DNA of 64,000 bases from Escherichia coli. Its GTDB lineage: Bacteria > Pseudomonadota > Gammaproteobacteria > Enterobacterales > Enterobacteriaceae. Shown here piece by piece: positions 775 through 44,041 of the stretch. The DNA lies in NCBI RefSeq assembly GCF_044324875.1, contig NZ_CP172185.1. One strand, 5' to 3'. The notes below the pieces were generated by a model. The model saw nothing but the letters and a program-made list of their open reading frames with translations, was not told the origin of the DNA and did not search any database. The position numbers were made by a program, and so were the translations under genes. The stretch's first letter is position 1. Each line of letters starts with the position of its first letter.

Positions 775-2772
775 ATGGAGATTTATATGAATAACTCTCG
801 GTTATTCCGTTTGAGCAGGATTGTTATTGCGTTAACTGCCGCCAGCGGCATGATGGTAAATACCGCTTACGCAACAGATGAAGCGAAAGCCGCCACTCAA
901 TATACCCAACAGGTTAATCAGAATTACGCCAAATCATTACCGTTTAGCGATCGTCAGGATTTTGACGATGCCCAGCGTGGATTTATCGCCCCGCTGCTGG
1001 ATGAAGGTATTCTGCGTGATGCGAACGGTAAAGTTTACTACCGCGCAGACGATTACAAATTTGATATTAATGCCGCTGCGCCGGAAACCGTAAACCCCAG
1101 CCTGTGGCGTCAGTCGCAAATCAACGGTATTTCTGGCCTGTTCAAAGTCACCGATAAAATGTATCAGGTGCGCGGCCAGGATATCTCTAACATTACGTTC
1201 GTTGAGGGCGAGAAAGGCATTATTGTTATCGACCCGCTGGTGACGCCGCCTGCCGCAAAAGCCGCACTTGATCTTTACTTCCAGCATCGTCCGCAAAAAC
1301 CGATTGTTGCTGTGATTTACACCCACAGCCACGCCGACCATTATGGCGGTGTGAAAGGCATTATCTCTGAAGCGGATGTTAAATCCGGCAAAGTGCAGGT
1401 GATCGCTCCGGCAGGCTTTATGGACGAAGCCATCAGCGAAAACGTGCTGGCGGGTAACATCATGAGCCGCCGTGCGCTCTACTCTTACGGTCTGTTACTG
1501 CCGCACAACGCGCAAGGCAACGTGGGCAACGGCCTGGGCGTGACGCTGGCAACCGGCGACCCGAGCATTATTGCACCGACTAAAACTATCGTCAGAACTG
1601 GCGAGAAGATGATTATCGACGGCCTGGAATTTGACTTCCTGATGACTCCGGGTAGCGAAGCGCCAGCCGAAATGCACTTCTATATTCCGGCCCTGAAAGC
1701 CCTGTGTACCGCCGAGAACGCCACGCATACCCTGCACAACTTCTACACTCTGCGCGGCGCGAAAACCCGCGATACCAGCAAGTGGACCGAGTACCTGAAC
1801 GAAACGCTGGATATGTGGGGTAACGACGCGGAAGTACTGTTTATGCCGCACACCTGGCCGGTCTGGGGCAATAAGCATATCAATGATTATATTGGTAAAT
1901 ATCGCGATACTATCAAGTACATTCACGACCAGACCCTGCACCTGGCGAACCAGGGCTACACCATGAATGAAATCGGCGACATGATTAAGCTGCCGCCTGC
2001 GCTTGCCAATAACTGGGCCAGCCGCGGCTATTACGGTTCTGTCAGCCACAACGCCCGCGCGGTGTATAACTTCTATCTTGGCTATTACGACGGTAACCCG
2101 GCTAACCTACATCCGTATGGTCAGGTGGAGATGGGTAAACGTTACGTGAAAGCGCTGGGCGGTTCTGCCCGCGTCATCAACCTGGCGCAAGAAGCGAACA
2201 AGCAAGGTGATTACCGTTGGTCGGCAGAACTGCTGAAACAGGTGATTGCCGCCAACCCTGGTGACCAGGTCGCGAAGAATCTGCAAGCGAATAACTTTGA
2301 ACAGCTGGGCTATCAGGCCGAGTCCGCCACCTGGCGCGGTTTCTACCTGACCGGCGCGAAAGAGCTGCGCGAAGGGGTGCATAAATTCAACCACGGCACC
2401 ACCGGTTCCCCGGACACCCTTCGCGGAATGTCGGTCGAAATGCTGTTCGACTTTATGTCCGTTCGCCTCGATAGTGCGAAAGCCGCGGGTAAAAATATCA
2501 GCCTGAACTTCAATATGAGCAACGGCGATAACCTCAACCTGACGCTGAACGATAGCGTGCTTAACTACCGTAAAACGCTGCAACCGCAAGCCGACGCCTC
2601 TTTCTACATCAGCCGTGAAGATCTGCATGCCGTGCTGACCGGACAAGTCAAAATAGTGGATCTGGTAAAAGCGAAGAAAGCCAAAATTATTGGCAATGGC
2701 GCGAAACTGGAAGAAATTATTGCCTGTCTGGATAATTTCGATTTGTGGGTGAATATCGTAACCCCAAATTAA
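775..2772 (+). CDS. yjcS: Type I alkyl/aryl sulfatase-like metallo-beta-lactamase-fold protein with signal peptide
   Basis: 665-aa ORF; N-terminal signal peptide; HSHADH metal-binding motif ([10 protein letters not shown]). True start may be the ATG at 787 (MNNSRLF...). Confidence 0.88.
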
Positions 2773-8017: not shown

Positions 8018-10165
8018 ATGAAAAAAGTCGTCACGGTTTGCCCCTATTGCGCATCAGGTTGCAAAATCAACCTGGTCGTCGATAACGGCAAAATCGTCCG
8101 GGCGGAGGCAGCGCAGGGGAAAACCAACCAGGGTACCCTGTGTCTGAAGGGTTATTATGGCTGGGATTTCATTAACGATACCCAGATCCTGACCCCGCGC
8201 CTGAAAACCCCCATGATCCGTCGCCAGCGTGGCGGCAAACTCGAACCTGTTTCCTGGGATGAGGCACTGAATTACGTTGCCGAGCGCCTGAGCGCCATCA
8301 AAGAGAAGTACGGTCCGGATGCCATCCAGACGACCGGCTCCTCGCGTGGTACGGGTAACGAAACCAACTATGTAATGCAAAAATTTGCGCGCGCCGTTAT
8401 TGGTACCAATAACGTTGACTGCTGCGCTCGTGTCTGACACGGCCCATCGGTTGCAGGTCTGCACCAATCGGTCGGTAATGGCGCAATGAGCAATGCTATT
8501 AACGAAATTGATAATACCGATTTAGTGTTCGTTTTCGGGTACAACCCGGCGGATTCCCACCCAATCGTGGCGAATCACGTAATTAACGCTAAACGTAACG
8601 GGGCGAAAATTATCGTCTGCGATCCGCGCAAAATTGAAACCGCGCGCATTGCGGACATGCACATTGCACTGAAAAACGGCTCGAACATCGCGCTGTTGAA
8701 TGCGATGGGCCATGTCATTATTGAAGAAAATCTGTACGACAAAGCGTTCGTCGCTTCCCGCACAGAAGGCTTTGAAGAGTATCGTAAAATCGTTGAAGGC
8801 TACACGCCGGAGTCGGTTGAAGATATCACCGGCGTCAGCGCCAGTGAGATTCGTCAGGCGGCGCGGATGTATGCCCAGGCGAAAAGCGCCGCCATCCTGT
8901 GGGGCATGGGTGTAACCCAGTTCTACCAGGGCGTGGAAACCGTGCGTTCTCTGACCAGCCTCGCGATGCTGACTGGTAACCTCGGTAAGCCGCATGCGGG
9001 TGTAAACCCGGTTCGTGGTCAGAACAACGTGCAGGGTGCCTGCGATATGGGCGCGCTGCCGGATACGTATCCGGGATACCAGTACGTGAAAGATCCGGCT
9101 AACCGCGAGAAATTCGCCAAAGCCTGGGGCGTGGAAAGCCTGCCAGCGCATACCGGCTATCGCATCAGCGAGCTGCCGCACCGCGCAGCGCATGGCGAAG
9201 TGCGTGCCGCGTACATTATGGGCGAAGATCCGCTGCAAACTGACGCGGAGCTGTCGGCAGTACGTAAAGCCTTTGAAGATCTGGAACTGGTTATCGTTCA
9301 GGACATCTTTATGACCAAAACCGCGTCGGCGGCGGATGTTATTTTACCGTCAACGTCGTGGGGCGAGCATGAAGGCGTGTTTACTGCGGCTGACCGTGGT
9401 TTCCAGCGTTTCTTCAAAGCAGTTGAACCGAAATGGGATCTGAAAACGGACTGGCAAATCATCAGTGAAATTGCCACTCGTATGGGTTATCCGATGCACT
9501 ACAACAACACCCAGGAGATCTGGGATGAGTTGCGTCATCTGTGCCCGGATTTCTACGGTGCGACTTACGAAAAAATGGGCGAACTGGGCTTCATTCAGTG
9601 GCCTTGCCGCGATACTTCAGATGCCGATCAGGGGACTTCTTATCTGTTTAAAGAGAAGTTTGATACCCCGAACGGTCTGGCGCAGTTCTTCACCTGCGAC
9701 TGGGTAGCGCCAATCGACAAACTCACCGACGAGTATCCGATGGTACTGTCAACGGTGCGTGAAGTTGGTCACTACTCTTGCCGTTCGATGACCGGTAACT
9801 GTGCGGCACTGGCGGCGCTGGCTGATGAACCTGGCTACGCACAAATCAATACCGAAGACGCCAAACGTCTGGGTATTGAAGATGAGGCATTGGTTTGGGT
9901 GCACTCGCGTAAAGGCAAAATTATCACCCGTGCGCAGGTCAGCGATCGTCCGAACAAAGGGGCGATTTACATGACCTACCAGTGGTGGATTGGTGCCTGT
10001 AACGAGCTGGTTACCGAAAACTTAAGCCCGATTACGAAAACGCCGGAATACAAATACTGCGCCGTGCGCGTCGAGCCGATCGCCGATCAGCGCGCCGCCG
10101 AGCAGTACGTGATTGACGAGTACAACAAGTTGAAAACTCGCCTGCGCGAAGCGGCACTGGCGTAA
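8018..10165 (+). CDS. fdhF: Formate dehydrogenase H, selenocysteine-containing molybdoenzyme; UGA at 8435-8437 decoded as Sec
   Basis: ORFs 8018..8437 and 8486..10165 are in the same frame, separated only by an in-frame TGA; N-terminal Fe-S cysteine cluster (CPYCASGCK...CLKG); the joined product is the right length for FdhF. Confidence 0.92.
8438..8480 (+). other. SECIS stem-loop directing selenocysteine insertion at the fdhF UGA
   Basis: Sequence immediately 3' of the UGA (cacggcccatcggttgcaggtctgcaccaatcggtcggtaatggc) can form the hairpin expected for the fdhF SECIS. Confidence 0.75.
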
Positions 10166-10178
10166 TACAGTCCTTTCT

Positions 10179-10207
10179 ACAGCCTCCTTTCGGAGGCTGT
10201 TTTTTTA
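10179..10207 (+). terminator. Rho-independent terminator of fdhF
   Basis: acagcctcc-tttc-ggaggctgt hairpin followed by a T7 run. Confidence 0.75.
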
Positions 10208-10258
10208 TCCATTCGAACTCTTTATACTGGTTACTCCCTACCCAATCGTATTATCAAA

Positions 10259-28774: not shown

Positions 28775-28915
28775 AAAGCATCAACACCAACCGGAACCTC
28801 CACCACGTGCTCGAATGAGGTGTGTTGACGTCGGGGGAAACCCTCCTGTGTACCAGCGGGATAGAGAGAAAGACAAAGACCGGAAAACAAACTAAAGCGC
28901 CCTTGTGGCGCTTTA
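28775..28915 (+). ncRNA. ryjA: Candidate small RNA convergent with soxR (RyjA-like)
   Basis: From memory, K-12 has the sRNA RyjA in the soxR-yjcD intergenic region. TACAAT -10-like element near 28766; the transcript would end at the shared hairpin. Strand and ends are uncertain. Confidence 0.3.
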
Positions 28916-28920
28916 GTTTT
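28891..28920. terminator. Bidirectional terminator hairpin overlapping the soxR stop codon
   Basis: Perfect 11-bp inverted repeat actaaagcgcc-cttgt-ggcgctttagt with T runs on both strands. Confidence 0.7.
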
Positions 28921-32184: not shown

Positions 32185-32721
32185 TCAGAACGGAATATCG
32201 TCATCAAAGTCCATCGGCGGCTCGTTAGACGGTGCTGCCGGAGCAGACTGCTGCGGGCGAGACTGCGCGCCGCCGCTGAACTGATTGCCGCCCTGCGGCT
32301 GCTGAGGCTGACCCCAACCGCCCTGCGGCTGACCACCACCGATATTGCCACCTGCAGGAGCGCCACCACCCTGACGACCACCCAACATCTGCATGGTGCC
32401 ACCAACGTTCACCACGACTTCTGTGGTGTAGCGATCCTGACCGGATTGATCGGTCCATTTGCGGGTACGCAGCTGACCTTCGATATAAACCTGAGAACCT
32501 TTACGCAGATATTCGCTGGCTACTTCTGCCAGTTTGCCGAACAGCACAACGCGGTGCCATTCAGTCTGCTCTTTCATCTCGCCGGTCGCTTTGTCACGCC
32601 AGGATTCGGAAGTAGCCAGCGTAATGTTGGCAACAGCGCCACCATTTGGCATGTAGCGTACTTCCGGGTCCTGACCCAGATTACCAACGAGAATAACCTT
32701 GTTTACGCCTCTGCTGGCCAT
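32185..32721 (-). CDS. ssb: Single-stranded DNA-binding protein
   Basis: 178 aa; OB-fold N-terminus, Gly/Gln-rich linker, acidic tail DDDIPF. Confidence 0.96.
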
Positions 32722-32874
32722 GTTCGTGTCTCCTGAAAAAAAATCATTCTGAATAAGTGTAAACGCGCGATTGTACCATTACCAATAGCGCTTTTACTAT
32801 GTTGTGACCTCGGTTCCGGGAAACAAACCTGGCCAGACATTGTTACACAACACTCCGGGTATTGCATTCCAATA

Positions 32875-32890
32875 CTGTATATTCATTCAG
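32875..32890. promoter_or_regulatory. LexA (SOS) box shared by divergent ssb and uvrA promoters
   Basis: CTGTATATTCATTCAG matches CTGT-N8-ACAG. Confidence 0.75.
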
Positions 32891-32975
32891 GTCAATTTGT
32901 GTCATAATTAACCGTTTGTGATCGCCGGTAGCACCATGCCACCGGGCAAAAAAGCGTTTAATCCGGGAAAGGTGA

Positions 32976-35798
32976 ATGGATAAGATCGAAGTTCGGGGCG
33001 CCCGCACCCATAATCTCAAAAACATCAACCTCGTTATCCCCCGCGACAAGCTCATTGTCGTGACCGGGCTTTCGGGTTCTGGCAAATCCTCGCTCGCTTT
33101 CGACACCTTATATGCCGAAGGGCAGCGCCGTTACGTTGAATCCCTTTCCGCCTACGCGCGGCAGTTTCTGTCACTGATGGAAAAGCCGGACGTCGATCAT
33201 ATTGAGGGGCTTTCTCCTGCCATCTCAATTGAGCAGAAATCGACGTCTCATAACCCGCGTTCTACGGTGGGGACAATCACCGAAATCCACGACTATTTGC
33301 GTTTGTTGTTCGCCCGCGTCGGTGAGCCGCGCTGCCCGGACCACGACGTCCCGCTGGCGGCGCAAACCGTCAGTCAGATGGTGGATAACGTGTTGTCCCA
33401 GCCGGAAGGTAAACGCCTGATGCTGCTCGCGCCAATCATTAAAGAGCGCAAAGGCGAACACACCAAAACGCTGGAGAACCTGGCAAGTCAGGGTTACATC
33501 CGTGCTCGTATTGATGGCGAAGTCTGCGATCTTTCCGATCCGCCGAAACTGGAACTGCAAAAGAAACATACCATTGAAGTGGTGGTTGATCGCTTCAAGG
33601 TGCGTGACGATCTTACCCAACGTCTTGCCGAGTCGTTTGAAACCGCGCTGGAGCTTTCCGGTGGTACCGCGGTAGTTGCGGATATGGACGACCCGAAAGC
33701 GGAAGAGTTGCTGTTCTCCGCTAATTTCGCCTGCCCAATTTGCGGCTACAGTATGCGTGAACTGGAGCCGCGACTGTTTTCGTTTAACAACCCGGCAGGG
33801 GCCTGCCCGACCTGTGACGGCCTTGGCGTGCAGCAATATTTCGATCCTGACCGCGTGATCCAGAATCCGGAACTGTCGCTGGCTGGCGGTGCGATCCGAG
33901 GCTGGGATCGCCGCAACTTCTATTACTTCCAGATGCTGAAATCGCTGGCAGATCACTATAAGTTCGACGTCGAAGCGCCGTGGGGCAGCCTGAGCGCGAA
34001 CGTGCATAAAGTGGTGTTGTACGGTTCTGGCAAAGAAAACATTGAATTCAAATACATGAACGATCGTGGCGATACCTCCATTCGTCGTCATCCGTTCGAA
34101 GGCGTGCTGCACAATATGGAGCGCCGTTATAAAGAGACGGAATCCAGTGCGGTACGCGAAGAATTAGCCAAGTTTATCAGCAATCGCCCGTGCGCCAGCT
34201 GCGAAGGGACGCGTCTGCGTCGGGAAGCGCGCCATGTGTATGTCGAGAATACGCCGCTGCCTGCTATCTCCGACATGAGCATCGGTCATGCGATGGAATT
34301 CTTCAACAATCTCAAACTCGCAGGTCAGCGAGCGAAGATTGCGGAAAAAATTCTTAAAGAGATTGGCGATCGCCTGAAATTCCTCGTTAACGTCGGCCTG
34401 AATTACCTGACACTTTCCCGCTCGGCAGAGACACTTTCTGGCGGTGAAGCCCAGCGTATCCGTCTGGCGAGCCAGATTGGTGCGGGCCTGGTTGGCGTTA
34501 TGTACGTGCTGGACGAGCCGTCTATCGGCCTGCACCAGCGCGATAACGAGCGCCTGTTGGGTACGCTTATCCATCTGCGCGATCTCGGTAATACCGTGAT
34601 TGTGGTGGAGCACGACGAAGACGCGATTCGCGCCGCTGACCATGTGATCGACATTGGCCCGGGCGCAGGTGTACACGGCGGTGAAGTGGTCGCAGAAGGT
34701 CCACTGGAAGCGATTATGGCAGTGCCTGAGTCGTTGACCGGGCAGTACATGAGCGGCAAACGCAAGATTGAAGTGCCGAAGAAACGCGTTCCGGCGAATC
34801 CGGAAAAAGTGCTGAAGCTGACAGGCGCACGTGGTAATAACCTGAAAGACGTGACGCTGACGCTGCCAGTCGGTCTGTTTACCTGCATCACAGGGGTTTC
34901 AGGTTCCGGTAAATCGACGCTGATTAACGACACACTGTTCCCGATTGCCCAACGCCAGTTGAATGGTGCGACCATCGCCGAACCGGCACCGTATCGCGAT
35001 ATTCAGGGGCTGGAGCATTTCGATAAAGTGATCGATATCGACCAAAGCCCAATTGGTCGTACTCCGCGTTCTAACCCGGCGACCTATACCGGCGTGTTTA
35101 CGCCTGTGCGCGAACTGTTTGCGGGCGTACCGGAATCCCGTGCGCGCGGCTATACGCCGGGACGTTTCAGCTTTAACGTCCGTGGCGGGCGCTGCGAAGC
35201 CTGTCAGGGCGACGGCGTGATCAAAGTGGAGATGCACTTCCTGCCGGATATCTACGTACCGTGCGACCAGTGCAAAGGCAAACGCTATAACCGTGAAACG
35301 CTGGAGATTAAGTACAAAGGCAAAACCATCCACGAAGTGCTGGATATGACCATCGAAGAGGCGCGTGAGTTCTTTGATGCCGTACCTGCACTGGCGCGTA
35401 AGCTGCAAACGTTGATGGACGTTGGTCTGACGTACATTCGCCTGGGGCAGTCCGCAACCACACTTTCTGGTGGTGAAGCCCAGCGCGTGAAGCTAGCGCG
35501 TGAGCTGTCAAAACGCGGCACCGGGCAGACGCTGTATATTCTTGATGAGCCGACCACCGGTCTGCACTTCGCCGATATTCAGCAACTGCTCGACGTACTG
35601 CATAAACTGCGCGATCAGGGCAACACCATTGTGGTGATTGAGCACAATCTCGACGTGATCAAAACCGCTGACTGGATTGTCGACCTGGGACCGGAAGGCG
35701 GCAGTGGCGGCGGCGAGATCCTCGTCTCCGGTACGCCAGAAACCGTCGCGGAGTGCGAAGCTTCGCATACGGCACGCTTCCTCAAGCCGATGCTGTAA
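32976..35798 (+). CDS. uvrA: Excinuclease ABC subunit A
   Basis: 940 aa; two ABC ATPase modules ([16 protein letters not shown]) and zinc-finger cysteines. Confidence 0.97.
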
Positions 35799-39752: not shown

Positions 39753-39948
39753 GCGATGGTTCTCCAGGTTTACGGGCAGGTGGTTAAAACACAATAAACC
39801 GGAAGAAGGCGAAGATCGAGTGGATGTTCAGGGGCGAACGGCAATTAGCAACAGAGTGAGACTCATGACAAACGTACATCCGCCAGAGGCACGGCCTTCA
39901 TAAGAGCATGAAAGAATATCAACTTATTGAATTGGTAGGATTTTATTG

Positions 39949-39964
39949 GCCGGATAAGGCATTC
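39949..39964. repeat. Left half of a REP palindromic unit split by an IS insertion
   Basis: gccggataaggcattc; the other half resumes at 44042. Confidence 0.6.
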
Positions 39965-40015
39965 TGAACTGCACCCCAAATGTTGGACATAATCTGACAT
40001 CTGAAGGTGCAGTTT

Positions 40016-40537
40016 ATGAAACATTCATTTGAAGTAAAACTTGCCGCTGTAAATCATTACCTGGCCGGTCATGCAGGCATCATTTCTACGGCAAAACTCT
40101 TTCAACTTTCTCACACCAGCCTCTCACACTGGATTAATCTTTTTCTTCTTCACGGTCCTCGGGCACTGGATTGCAGACACAAGCGTAGCTATTCTCCTGA
40201 AGATAAACTTTGCGTGGTTCTTTATGCTCTCGGGCATTCTGAGTCTCTACCCCGGGTAGCTGCCCGGTTTAACATTCCCAGCCACAACACGGTTAAAAAC
40301 TGGATAAAAGGCTACCGCAAATCTGGTAATGAGGCCTTTATCAGGCGCTGGAAGGAGAAAAGCATGACCCGTTCTGATGATACCCATGAAAACGAGGCAA
40401 ACATGACGCCGGAAGAGATGAAGAATGAGCTGCGTTATCTTCGCGCAGAAAATGCATATCTGAAAGCCATGCAGGAGCATCTCCTGGAAAAAAAGCGCCA
40501 GGAGCTGGAGAAAAAACGAAAGTCATCCGGAGCCTGA
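40016..40537 (+). CDS. IS3-family transposase OrfA (HTH and leucine-zipper part)
   Basis: 173-aa ORF (MKHSFEVKLAAVNHYLAGH...), followed by orfB in the -1 frame. Confidence 0.85.
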   Translation: MKHSFEVKLAAVNHYLAGHAGIISTAKLFQLSHTSLSHWINLFLLHGPRALDCRHKRSYSPEDKLCVVLYALGHSESLPRVAARFNIPSHNTVKNWIKGYRKSGNEAFIRRWKEKSMTRSDDTHENEANMTPEEMKNELRYLRAENAYLKAMQEHLLEKKRQELEKKRKSSGA

Positions 40538-40639
40538 GGTGCGGATACTGCCAGTCTGATCTGTTAAAGGCTGCAGGGCTGGCCAGAAGCACGCTGTACT
40601 ACCAGCTGTCACTGCAGAAGGCTAAGGACAAGTATGCTG
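40538..40639 (+). pseudogene. 5' fragment of IS3-family orfB, cut by the IS21-family insertion
   Basis: The -1 frame reads LRCGYCQSDLLKAAGLARSTLYYQLSLQKAKDKYA and stops at the IS21-like left end. Confidence 0.5.
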
Positions 40640-40839
40640 CAAAATGGCATCTGAATCGATCGCAGTTTGGCATTCGAATCGATCATGATTTGGCATCCAT
40701 CTCCGATCACAGTTTGGCATCACAATCGATCACGATTTGGCATGCTTCCGATCATTGATTGGCATCCTGCCAGTCACTCCGGGAATTAACTCTTTTCACC
40801 ACAGTCTCCATTGCCGTGTTTAAACCAGTGGAGACGTCA

Positions 40840-42405
40840 ATGTCCAGAAAGAGAAAATCCAGGAGCACTATGGAAACCTGTTTTAAGATCCTTCAGCTCA
40901 AGTTCGACAAGAAGCTGACTAACCGTTGTATCGGACTGACGTTACACATCAGCGCCTCAACCGTTTTTGAGGTTCTTGCCCGCTTCAAAGCCTCTTCTCT
41001 GTCATGGCCATTACCTGCTGATATATCCCATGACACGCTGGAGAAACTCATTTTTCCGCCCAAAGACACCTTTGCATCAGAGCTTGTAATGCCTGACATG
41101 TTGTACTTCGATACGGAAATGAGAAAACCAGGTGTGACGCGGCAACTGTTGTGGATGGAATACAAGGCACAGGCGGGTAACAAAGCGATGGGATACTCGC
41201 ACTTCTGCCGTTGCTACCGGGAGTGGAAAAAAACGCGACGTCTCTCCATGCGCCAGGAGCATCGTGCCGGCGAAAAGCTTTTTATCGACTTCTGTGGTCC
41301 TACGGTTCCTGTTATTAATCCGGACACCGGTGAGATACGCCGCGTGGCAATCTTCGTGGCCGTAATGGGGGCGTCCAACTATACCTACGTTGAAGCGTGC
41401 GAAGGTCAGGACATGATGTCATGGTTAAATGCCCACAGCCGTTGCCTGACCTTCCTGGGCGGCGTACCGAAGCTGCTCATCCCCGATAACCTCAGAAGCG
41501 CAGTGAAAAAGGCCGATCGATATGAGCCTGTCATCAACGACAGTTATCAGGCACTGGCTGAGCACTATGGCACGGTTATCATCCCGGCCCGACCACGCAA
41601 ACCTAAAGATAAACCAAAAGCAGAAAACGGCGTCCTCATCGTTGAACGATGGCTTCTTGCCCGCATCCGTAATGAAACCTTCCACACGCTCAGGGCGCTG
41701 AATGCGCGCCTTAGGGAGTTACTGACAGACATGAATAACCGGCCAATGAAGGGGTACGGCAATCAAACCCGTGCAGAACGCTTCCGCATACTGGATGCGC
41801 CAGCACTCTCTCCGCTGCCTCTGGCACCTTATGAATACACGGAATACAAAGCTGTGAAGGTTGGCCCTGACTACCACGTTGAATATGCCCGTCACTGGTA
41901 CTCCGTTCCACACGAACTGGTCGGTCAGCGTCTGTCACTGAAGGCGGGGCAGTCGGTGGTACAGCTCTGGCACAAGGGGCAGTGTGTGGCGCAACATCCG
42001 CGCAGCACACATGAATATAAACACACAACCAATCCGCTTCACATGCCAGAGCGCCACCGGCAGCACGGGACATGGACACCGGAACGCCTGATCGAGCAGG
42101 GAAAACGTACGGGCCCGTCCACAGGCCGGGTGGTTGAATCCATGCTGAAGGCAAAACCCCATCCGGAACTGGCTTATCGTGCAGTTCTGGGGCTGCTGGC
42201 ACTTCAGAAAAAATACGGCCCGGAACGGCTGGAAAAGGCCTGTTACGTTGCCCTGCACTATAACGCCCCTGACAGACGCTTTATCGACAATCTGCTGCGT
42301 CACCATCGGGAGAACCTGGAGCTTCCATTATCCCGCCAGGGCGAACAACATCCGGCATATGCTTCAGAGCATGAAAACCTGCGTGGTCCGGGCTACTACC
42401 ACTGA
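40840..42405 (+). CDS. istA: IS21-family transposase IstA (HTH and DDE integrase)
   Basis: ORF 40759..42405 with an HTH N-terminus and integrase core; start chosen at MSRKRKSRS and uncertain. Confidence 0.8.
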   Translation: MSRKRKSRSTMETCFKILQLKFDKKLTNRCIGLTLHISASTVFEVLARFKASSLSWPLPADISHDTLEKLIFPPKDTFASELVMPDMLYFDTEMRKPGVTRQLLWMEYKAQAGNKAMGYSHFCRCYREWKKTRRLSMRQEHRAGEKLFIDFCGPTVPVINPDTGEIRRVAIFVAVMGASNYTYVEACEGQDMMSWLNAHSRCLTFLGGVPKLLIPDNLRSAVKKADRYEPVINDSYQALAEHYGTVIIPARPRKPKDKPKAENGVLIVERWLLARIRNETFHTLRALNARLRELLTDMNNRPMKGYGNQTRAERFRILDAPALSPLPLAPYEYTEYKAVKVGPDYHVEYARHWYSVPHELVGQRLSLKAGQSVVQLWHKGQCVAQHPRSTHEYKHTTNPLHMPERHRQHGTWTPERLIEQGKRTGPSTGRVVESMLKAKPHPELAYRAVLGLLALQKKYGPERLEKACYVALHYNAPDRRFIDNLLRHHRENLELPLSRQGEQHPAYASEHENLRGPGYYH

Positions 42406-42421
42406 CAGAAGGAACAACAGT

Positions 42422-43177
42422 ATGAGTGATAACCTGTTAAACAAACTGACCCAACTGAAACTCCCGGCGATGGCCGGGAGCCTGATACGGCAGCGGGAAA
42501 CGCCTCAGACCTACGACGAACTGTCGTTCGAGGAAAGGCTGACGCTGCTGGTTGATGACGAGCTTCTGAGCAGGGAAAACAGCCGTGTGGCACGGTTGAG
42601 AAAAAATGCCGGCCTGAAATACCAGGCAACACCGGAAGGGCTGCGCTATCCGGCCTCAAGAGGTCTGCGGGCTGAACAGATGAGAGAACTGCTGAACGGC
42701 CACTACATAACCCACAGGAAAAACCTGCTGATAACCGGTCCGACAGGATGTGGCAAGAGCTGGATAGCCAATGCGCTGGGCGAACAGGCATGTCGACAGA
42801 AACACAGCGTCCGGTACTGTAGAACCGGGCGATTACTGGAACAACTGGCTCAGGGACGTGTTGATGGCAGCTGGCTGAAATATCTGAAACAGTTGCAAAA
42901 AATACAGGTTCTAATCCTGGACGATCTGGGGCTGGAACAGTTAAGTAACGCCCAGTGTAATGACCTTCTGGAGCTCATAGAGGATCGTTACGGACAAAGC
43001 AGCACGATAGTGGTAAGCCAGTTCCCGGTAGATAAATGGCATGGTCTGATGGAGAACCCAACAACAGCAGATGCCATCCTGGACAGACTGGTACATAACT
43101 CACACCGAGTGGTCCTTCAGGGAGAGTCACTGAGGAAAAATCCCCCGGTAGTGGAAAGCAGCGAAAAAACGCGTTAA
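42422..43177 (+). CDS. istB: IS21-family helper ATPase IstB
   Basis: Walker A GPTGCGKS and Walker B (LILDD); internal ATG of ORF 42179..43177, 17 nt after the istA stop. Confidence 0.85.
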   Translation: MSDNLLNKLTQLKLPAMAGSLIRQRETPQTYDELSFEERLTLLVDDELLSRENSRVARLRKNAGLKYQATPEGLRYPASRGLRAEQMRELLNGHYITHRKNLLITGPTGCGKSWIANALGEQACRQKHSVRYCRTGRLLEQLAQGRVDGSWLKYLKQLQKIQVLILDDLGLEQLSNAQCNDLLELIEDRYGQSSTIVVSQFPVDKWHGLMENPTTADAILDRLVHNSHRVVLQGESLRKNPPVVESSEKTR

Positions 43178-43284
43178 AAAGCGGTAGAAAAAGTTAAGTT
43201 CCCGGTTGATCGAATGGATGCGAATCGCTGATCGGACTTCGATGCCAATCCGTGATCGAATAGAGCGGAATACGCAGTATGCTG

Positions 43285-44020
<736 letters not shown>

Positions 44021-44041
44021 TAGGTTTTGGGGTTCAGTTCA

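Follow-up and report, generated by a model that had tools for sequence, protein, structure and literature searches.

The ssb and uvrA genes of Escherichia coli are transcribed away from each other, and the short region between them contains a near-palindrome resembling a binding site of the LexA repressor. This arrangement raises the question of what the near-palindrome is and how far it governs each of the two genes. The DNA analysed (hereafter the window) is a stretch of 64,000 nucleotides from contig NZ_CP172185.1 of assembly GCF_044324875.1. A preliminary description, made from the letters alone, had proposed a single LexA box in a divergent ssb/uvrA promoter region. The site is almost certainly the long-known uvrA/ssb SOS operator of E. 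coli, a single 20-bp site for one LexA dimer, and the best-supported reading of its role is that of a moderate-affinity operator with clear control of uvrA and marginal control of ssb. The operator is conserved, ordinary, and already known in full detail, with no novelty attached to it; the value of the finding is that of a positive control only, a textbook regulatory element having been located from letters alone. The uvrA/ssb operator was characterised in 1982-1985 and is, to our knowledge, present in every SOS-regulon compilation.

The box between ssb and uvrA

The locus is comprised of two genes, the spacer that separates them, and the box.

32185..32721, minus strand: ssb, single-stranded DNA-binding protein, 178 aa (NCBIfam PRK09010, 360 bits, cutoff 260)
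32722..32975, no strand: divergent ssb-uvrA regulatory spacer, 254 bp, delimited by ORF boundaries
32873..32892, no strand: LexA operator (SOS box), 20-mer TACTGTATATTCATTCAGGT, with the 16-bp core CTGTATATTCATTCAG at 32875..32890
32976..35798, plus strand: uvrA, excinuclease ABC subunit A, 940 aa (NCBIfam PRK00349, 1628.6 bits, cutoff 1147)

The names ssb and uvrA also correspond to the annotation of E. coli genomes (ssb/ssb1 and uvrA). The limits of the spacer are exact, with the ssb start codon on the minus strand ending at 32721 and the uvrA ATG lying at 32976. The core was read from the sequence exactly where the preliminary description had placed it, and its position between two genes transcribed in opposite directions was confirmed by the open reading frames and the NCBIfam matches.

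In the window, the box stands in the context ...CCAATACTGTATATTCATTCAGGTCAATTTGTGTCATAATTAACC... and forms an imperfect palindrome whose CTG and CAG triplets are 10 bp apart. The match to the SOS box consensus, as originally described, holds at 15 of 20 positions (consensus used: TACTG(TA)5CAGTA, 20 bp). Alignment with MG1655 showed the 20-mer to be letter-for-letter the K-12 uvrA/ssb operator, and the same 20-mer occurs in the published sequence of a plasmid with a uvrA-promoter reporter (bioRxiv 10.1101/620195). The K-12 locus (Sancar et al. 1982; Brandsma et al. 1983, 1985) also shares the divergent layout and the distance of 83 bp from the 20-mer to the uvrA ATG. It differs from the window in spacer length (253 bp in K-12) and in three changes, all of which fall outside the box and the uvrA -10.

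32736-32743: run of 8 A (7 A in K-12)
32746: A for K-12 G, in the ssb leader, 25 nt upstream of the ssb start codon
32862: T for K-12 A, adjoining the candidate distal ssb -10

Many non-K-12 strains also have the 8-A run and the T at 32862. The A at 32746 is apparently private, with G found in K-12 and the aligned strains, and the spacer has no 100% match among the complete E. coli genomes listed, the best reaching 99.6%.

The window also contains the gene of the cognate repressor, at a distance of about 21 kb from the uvrA/ssb operator and together with its own operators.

51797..53176: dinF, downstream of lexA
53195..53803, minus strand: lexA, the trans-acting repressor (ORF mapped onto the annotated lexA of strain NRZ14408)
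53810..53829: lexA autoregulatory SOS box AACTGTATATACACCCAGGG, one of a tandem pair
53831..53850: lexA autoregulatory SOS box TGCTGTATATACTCACAGCA, the other of the pair

The lexA operators and the uvrA/ssb box belong to the same CTG-N10-CAG class and are served by the same repressor, but the lexA boxes form an adjacent pair just ahead of a single gene, whereas uvrA and ssb have one box for two divergent genes.

A loose search for CTGT-N8-ACAG with at most one mismatch revealed no enrichment in the window (18 found vs 16.9 expected). A pattern match alone thus proves nothing, and a LexA position weight matrix was used instead. The matrix was built from 29 E. coli operators of the compilations of Lewis 1994 and Fernandez de Henestrosa 2000; the training sites checked against sequence were the two lexA boxes and the uvrA box only, all of which were correct. 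The box was scored leave-one-out, the uvrA site being removed from the training set, and with this matrix it reached 19.0 bits when read in the orientation of ssb and 18.05 bits when read in that of uvrA. It ranked third of approximately 128,000 positions in the window, surpassed only by the pair of lexA operators, which score about 22 bits each and are both part of the training set, and the next match in the window scan scored 12.4 bits. According to the exact score distribution, chance alone would supply 0.03-0.055 matches of at least 18 bits in 64 kb, both strands counted, and 1-2e-4 within the spacer of 254 bp; 18.05 bits was reached anywhere in 8 of 200 simulated windows (first-order Markov). 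No second box was found in the spacer, where the best remaining score was only -0.6 bits (read from locus L003, whose spacer and box are closely like those of the window), so the box is single, as had been claimed.

Both checks that the preliminary description had named, a LexA matrix scan and a comparison with curated operators, support the assignment. The heterology index (Berg-von Hippel, against the 29 E. coli operators) was 5.7 when the site formed part of the set and 7.0-7.4 when it was withheld, which is mid-range among proven operators, whose index lies below about 12-15. These values agree with the published ones, namely 6.98 (Fernandez de Henestrosa et al. 2000, as quoted in a passage of PMC9505508) and 6.2 (the Courcelle set, as quoted in passages of PMC11228462 and PMC11002266).

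Conservation within and beyond Enterobacterales

In E. coli the locus is nearly universal. A 501-bp query spanning the spacer found it in 5425 of 5426 complete genomes, with at least 99% identity in 5409 records, which together with the alignment to K-12 marks the window as chromosomal DNA of the E. coli lineage. A 60-nt query covering the box and the -10 found 4680 records at least 99% identical, the other 746 differing by one or two bases. In the one E. coli variant inspected, the changed base, at 32893, is not part of the 20-mer; the most divergent E. coli record, with a spacer 91% identical, has an intact box, and the 14 bp directly upstream of the box have diverged.

A search with the first 200 UvrA residues yielded 80 gammaproteobacterial loci, in which ssb was placed by tblastn and the upstream region was scored. 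Seven Enterobacterales loci carry the divergent pair (Escherichia albertii, Citrobacter, two Enterobacter, Klebsiella, and two Photorhabdus), and each of the seven has exactly one strong box in the same place, at 15.7-19.0 bits. The distance from the box to the uvrA ATG is 66-97 bp in Enterobacterales, except for 189 bp in Photorhabdus cinerea, in which an ERIC-like insertion downstream of the promoter accounts for the greater length. This ERIC/IRU-like insertion (locus L009, about 1330..1460) is approximately 125 bp long, lies between the uvrA promoter and the ATG, reads GAGTGAATCCCCGG...GACCGGGGTGAGCGAG...GATGACGGGTAT, and does not occur in P. caribbeanensis.

Across nine aligned Enterobacterales sequences, CTG, CAG, and the spacing between them are invariant, and substitutions in the box are confined to inner positions, as in TATATTCATT, TATATCCACT, GATATTCATT, and TATATCTAAT. 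In sliding 20-nt windows over this alignment, the top-conserved stretch of the spacer is 32871..32892, with an identity of 0.89-0.92 vs 0.64 elsewhere. The box is therefore the most conserved 20 nt of the spacer. Of the two outcomes that the preliminary description had named as refuting, a low heterology-index score and a box not conserved among enterobacteria, neither was observed, and no other result speaks against the operator assignment. The second most conserved block, at 32898..32917 (identity 0.92), is that of the -10.

A single box shared by divergent ssb and uvrA has also been published for Salmonella enterica, with a heterology index of 6.99 and a position about 80 bp from the uvrA ATG (PMC8072944). 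That site belongs to another genus and is likened to the present one by its published description.

Outside Enterobacterales, the divergent ssb-uvrA pair and the box (14.6 bits) were found together at all three Pasteurellaceae loci. In Vibrio, all four loci have a box of 22-25 bits 65 bp upstream of uvrA, and none of the four has ssb within 1.5 kb of uvrA. In Aeromonas caviae (L011), the two genes remain divergent, with 1248 bp and hence something else between them, and uvrA is preceded at 52 bp by a LexA box of 19 bits. Among the scored loci, a box upstream of uvrA is absent in most Pseudomonadales, Xanthomonadales, and marine gamma lineages.

With regard to Pseudomonas, the sequence TAGTGTGCATCCATCCAGTA is identical in six of six loci (L029, L031, L032, L033, L036, and L039), 46-48 bp upstream of uvrA, a distance to the ATG that is fixed in the six species. 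Its LexA score is 12.5 bits because one half-site is GTG, not CTG. It could represent an operator that has decayed, or serve some other factor as a site.

Proposed control of uvrA and ssb

On the plus strand, the promoter of uvrA may be placed as follows.

32880..32885, plus strand: putative uvrA -35 TATTCA, inside the LexA box, 17-bp spacer
32900..32908, plus strand: probable extended -10 of the uvrA promoter, TGTCATAAT, with the hexamer CATAAT at 32903..32908 (relaxed scan and conservation)

Neither a sigma-70 promoter nor a terminator was found in 32600..33100 at default stringency, and the -35 and -10 assignments therefore rest on a relaxed scan, conservation, and the literature. In the relaxed scan, TGTCATAAT is the only plus-strand candidate with an extended -10 and the best sigma-70-like one. 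The interval from CAG to the -10 hexamer is exactly 12 bp in nine of nine sequences, the hexamer being (C/A)ATAAT with TG before it. Transcription of uvrA is predicted to start near 32915, which would give a leader of about 60 nt. The position of the predicted -35 inside the box agrees with the published overlap of the LexA box and the uvrA -35 (PMC9505508).

It is proposed that one LexA dimer would cover, on the plus strand, the uvrA -35 region and part of the promoter spacer, and that bound LexA would exclude RNA polymerase, as the site lies over the predicted -35 region. Even with LexA bound, uvrA would still be kept at a substantial basal level. DNA damage would then lead, through RecA-ssDNA filaments and self-cleavage of LexA, to an approximately 4-fold rise of uvrA. 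Such leaky, low-amplitude control is what the divergence from consensus (5 of 20 positions) and a heterology index of about 6-7 would fit. In this way the operator would set both the basal and the damage-induced level of UvrA, the sensor of nucleotide excision repair. Inhibition of uvrA transcription by LexA in vitro was reported in 1982 (Sancar et al. 1982, Nature 298:96).

The minus strand holds three candidate promoters of ssb, the distal one being the most tentative.

32890..32895, minus strand: candidate -35 of the distal, LexA-controlled ssb promoter, TTGACC
32871..32866, minus strand: candidate distal ssb -10, TGGAAT, with an 18-bp spacer that would place the box in the promoter spacer
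32839..32847, minus strand: conserved extended -10-like motif TGTAACAAT, candidate LexA-independent ssb promoter (relaxed scan)
32770..32778, minus strand: conserved extended -10-like motif TGGTACAAT, candidate proximal LexA-independent ssb promoter (relaxed scan)

The candidate distal hexamers are weak and, in the nine-sequence alignment, poorly conserved outside Escherichia. The motif TGTAACAAT lies in a conserved block, ACATTGTTACA, with an identity of 0.8-0.99, and TGGTACAAT lies within a conserved GATTGTA.CAT block. It was reported that one SOS box is common to the divergent ssb and uvrA genes (PMC9505508) and, in a passage of the same paper that cites Brandsma et al. 1985, that ssb has three promoters of which LexA represses only the distal one. 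On the minus strand, the operator would accordingly overlap only the most distal of the three. With the two proximal promoters independent of LexA, ssb is proposed to be largely constitutive, with a modest rise under strong SOS induction, and the operator's share in the supply of SSB under heavy damage would be marginal. The symmetry implied by the term "ssb/uvrA promoter region" in the preliminary description was thus overstated. The uvrA side stands, but on the ssb side LexA control is limited to the distal promoter, and induction is weak and disputed.

The extent of that induction bears on a possible, though doubtful, alternative, namely that the box functions as a LexA operator for uvrA alone and that the ssb side is a by-product of the divergent layout, with no physiologically meaningful effect on ssb. 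Decades of ssb induction data are contradictory (PMC9505508). No induction of ssb was seen in three microarray studies or in early immunoassays (PMC9505508), and RNA-seq after AZT gave 1.5-fold induction with a lexA dependence of 1.0 for ssb vs 3.9-fold induction with a 4.4-fold lexA dependence for uvrA (PMC11228462), all of which would suit an operator for uvrA only. RT-qPCR, on the other hand, detected LexA-dependent induction of ssb after UV and gamma irradiation, and a constitutive-SOS mutant overexpresses ssb (PMC9505508). The evidence from Salmonella enterica is likewise divided: ssb is placed in a group with LexA-independent basal heterogeneity, yet nalidixic acid induces both uvrA and ssb, the latter 9.6-fold (PMC8072944).

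The sequence comparison points both ways as well. An operator for uvrA only is favored by the Vibrio box, which stays 65 bp upstream of uvrA with no ssb nearby, by the invariant spacing between the box and the uvrA -10 compared with a candidate distal ssb -35 that is not conserved, and by the pair of conserved extended -10 motifs that the ssb strand has downstream of the box; the retention of the divergent pair together with the box from Escherichia to Pasteurellaceae speaks against it. That the box travels with uvrA in Vibrio and keeps a fixed spacing to the uvrA -10 also fits control that is mainly, rather than solely, of uvrA, and clear control of uvrA with marginal control of ssb is the reading preferred here. 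The one live issue connected with the locus, namely if and when ssb comes under true SOS regulation, has already been addressed experimentally (PMC9505508, PMC11228462).

Two further readings, of which one or the other is improbable but conceivable, concern the strain and the age of the box. Either the spacer variants have a small strain-specific effect on ssb expression, which could stem from the A at 32746, the 8-A run, or the T at 32862, or the box is an ancestral uvrA operator that predates and has outlived the linkage to ssb. The latter is suggested because Vibrio retains the box although ssb is not adjacent there, and because in Pseudomonas the box appears decayed to the conserved half-site TAGTGTGCATCCATCCAGTA. 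If true, neither would change the identity of the element.

It is very improbable that the conserved block is mainly the site of another regulator, such as ArcA, or a core promoter element, with its likeness to a LexA site secondary. An ArcA site is noted in the same intergenic region in the legend to Figure 1 of PMC9505508, and the overlap of the box with the putative uvrA -35 implies that conservation could partly reflect promoter function. However, the invariant columns are the LexA-specific CTG and CAG, 10 bp apart, the inner bases vary, including those of the putative -35, and LexA-dependent expression of uvrA is documented (PMC11228462). The same concentration of conservation on CTG, CAG, and their spacing speaks against a chance AT-rich near-palindrome in a promoter region without LexA function, a reading of almost negligible probability that draws on the chance rate of the loose pattern and the occasional 18-bit score in the simulated 64-kb windows, but is effectively refuted by conservation and the literature, given the very low expectation within the spacer, the rank of the box as the most conserved element there, its retention in Enterobacterales, Pasteurellaceae, and Vibrio with variation at inner positions only, and its identity to an experimentally characterised operator.

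Other features of the window

Two further matrix matches in the window were considered as operators and rejected, since they are at chance level, with approximately 1.3 such matches expected per window.

10195..10214: next-best matrix match GAATGGATAAAAAAACAGCC, 12.4 bits
19101..19120: next-best matrix match TATTGTTTTTCACGACAGTA, 12.0 bits

Between tyrB and alr, the window carries an insertion of 4.07 kb (39965..44039) that nearly all complete E. coli genomes lack at this site. The inserted DNA is an IS1397 element (IS3 family) broken in two by ISSso4 (IS21 family).

40007..40537: IS1397 orfA
40759..42405: ISSso4 istA
42179..43177: ISSso4 istB
43206..44009: IS1397 orfB

The terminal direct repeats of ISSso4, five or six in number and each about 23 bp long, lie at 40634..40767, with an inverted copy at 43241..43259, and a REP-like sequence at 39942..39961 adjoins the left junction of the insertion. 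The nested IS1397/ISSso4 pair was found in one other genome only, that of strain EC13.

Scanned in full against Rfam, the window showed no RNA family in the ssb-uvrA spacer and three gathering-level matches at other positions.

8430..8484, plus strand: SECIS_2 element, presumably in fdhF (87 bits)
28780..28920, plus strand: sRNA sraL/RyjA (153 bits)
61524..61594, minus strand: naRNA4, a REP-derived nucleoid-associated RNA (76 bits)

The naRNA4 match is located at a small discontinuity (61503/61563) in the alignment with strain NRZ14408.
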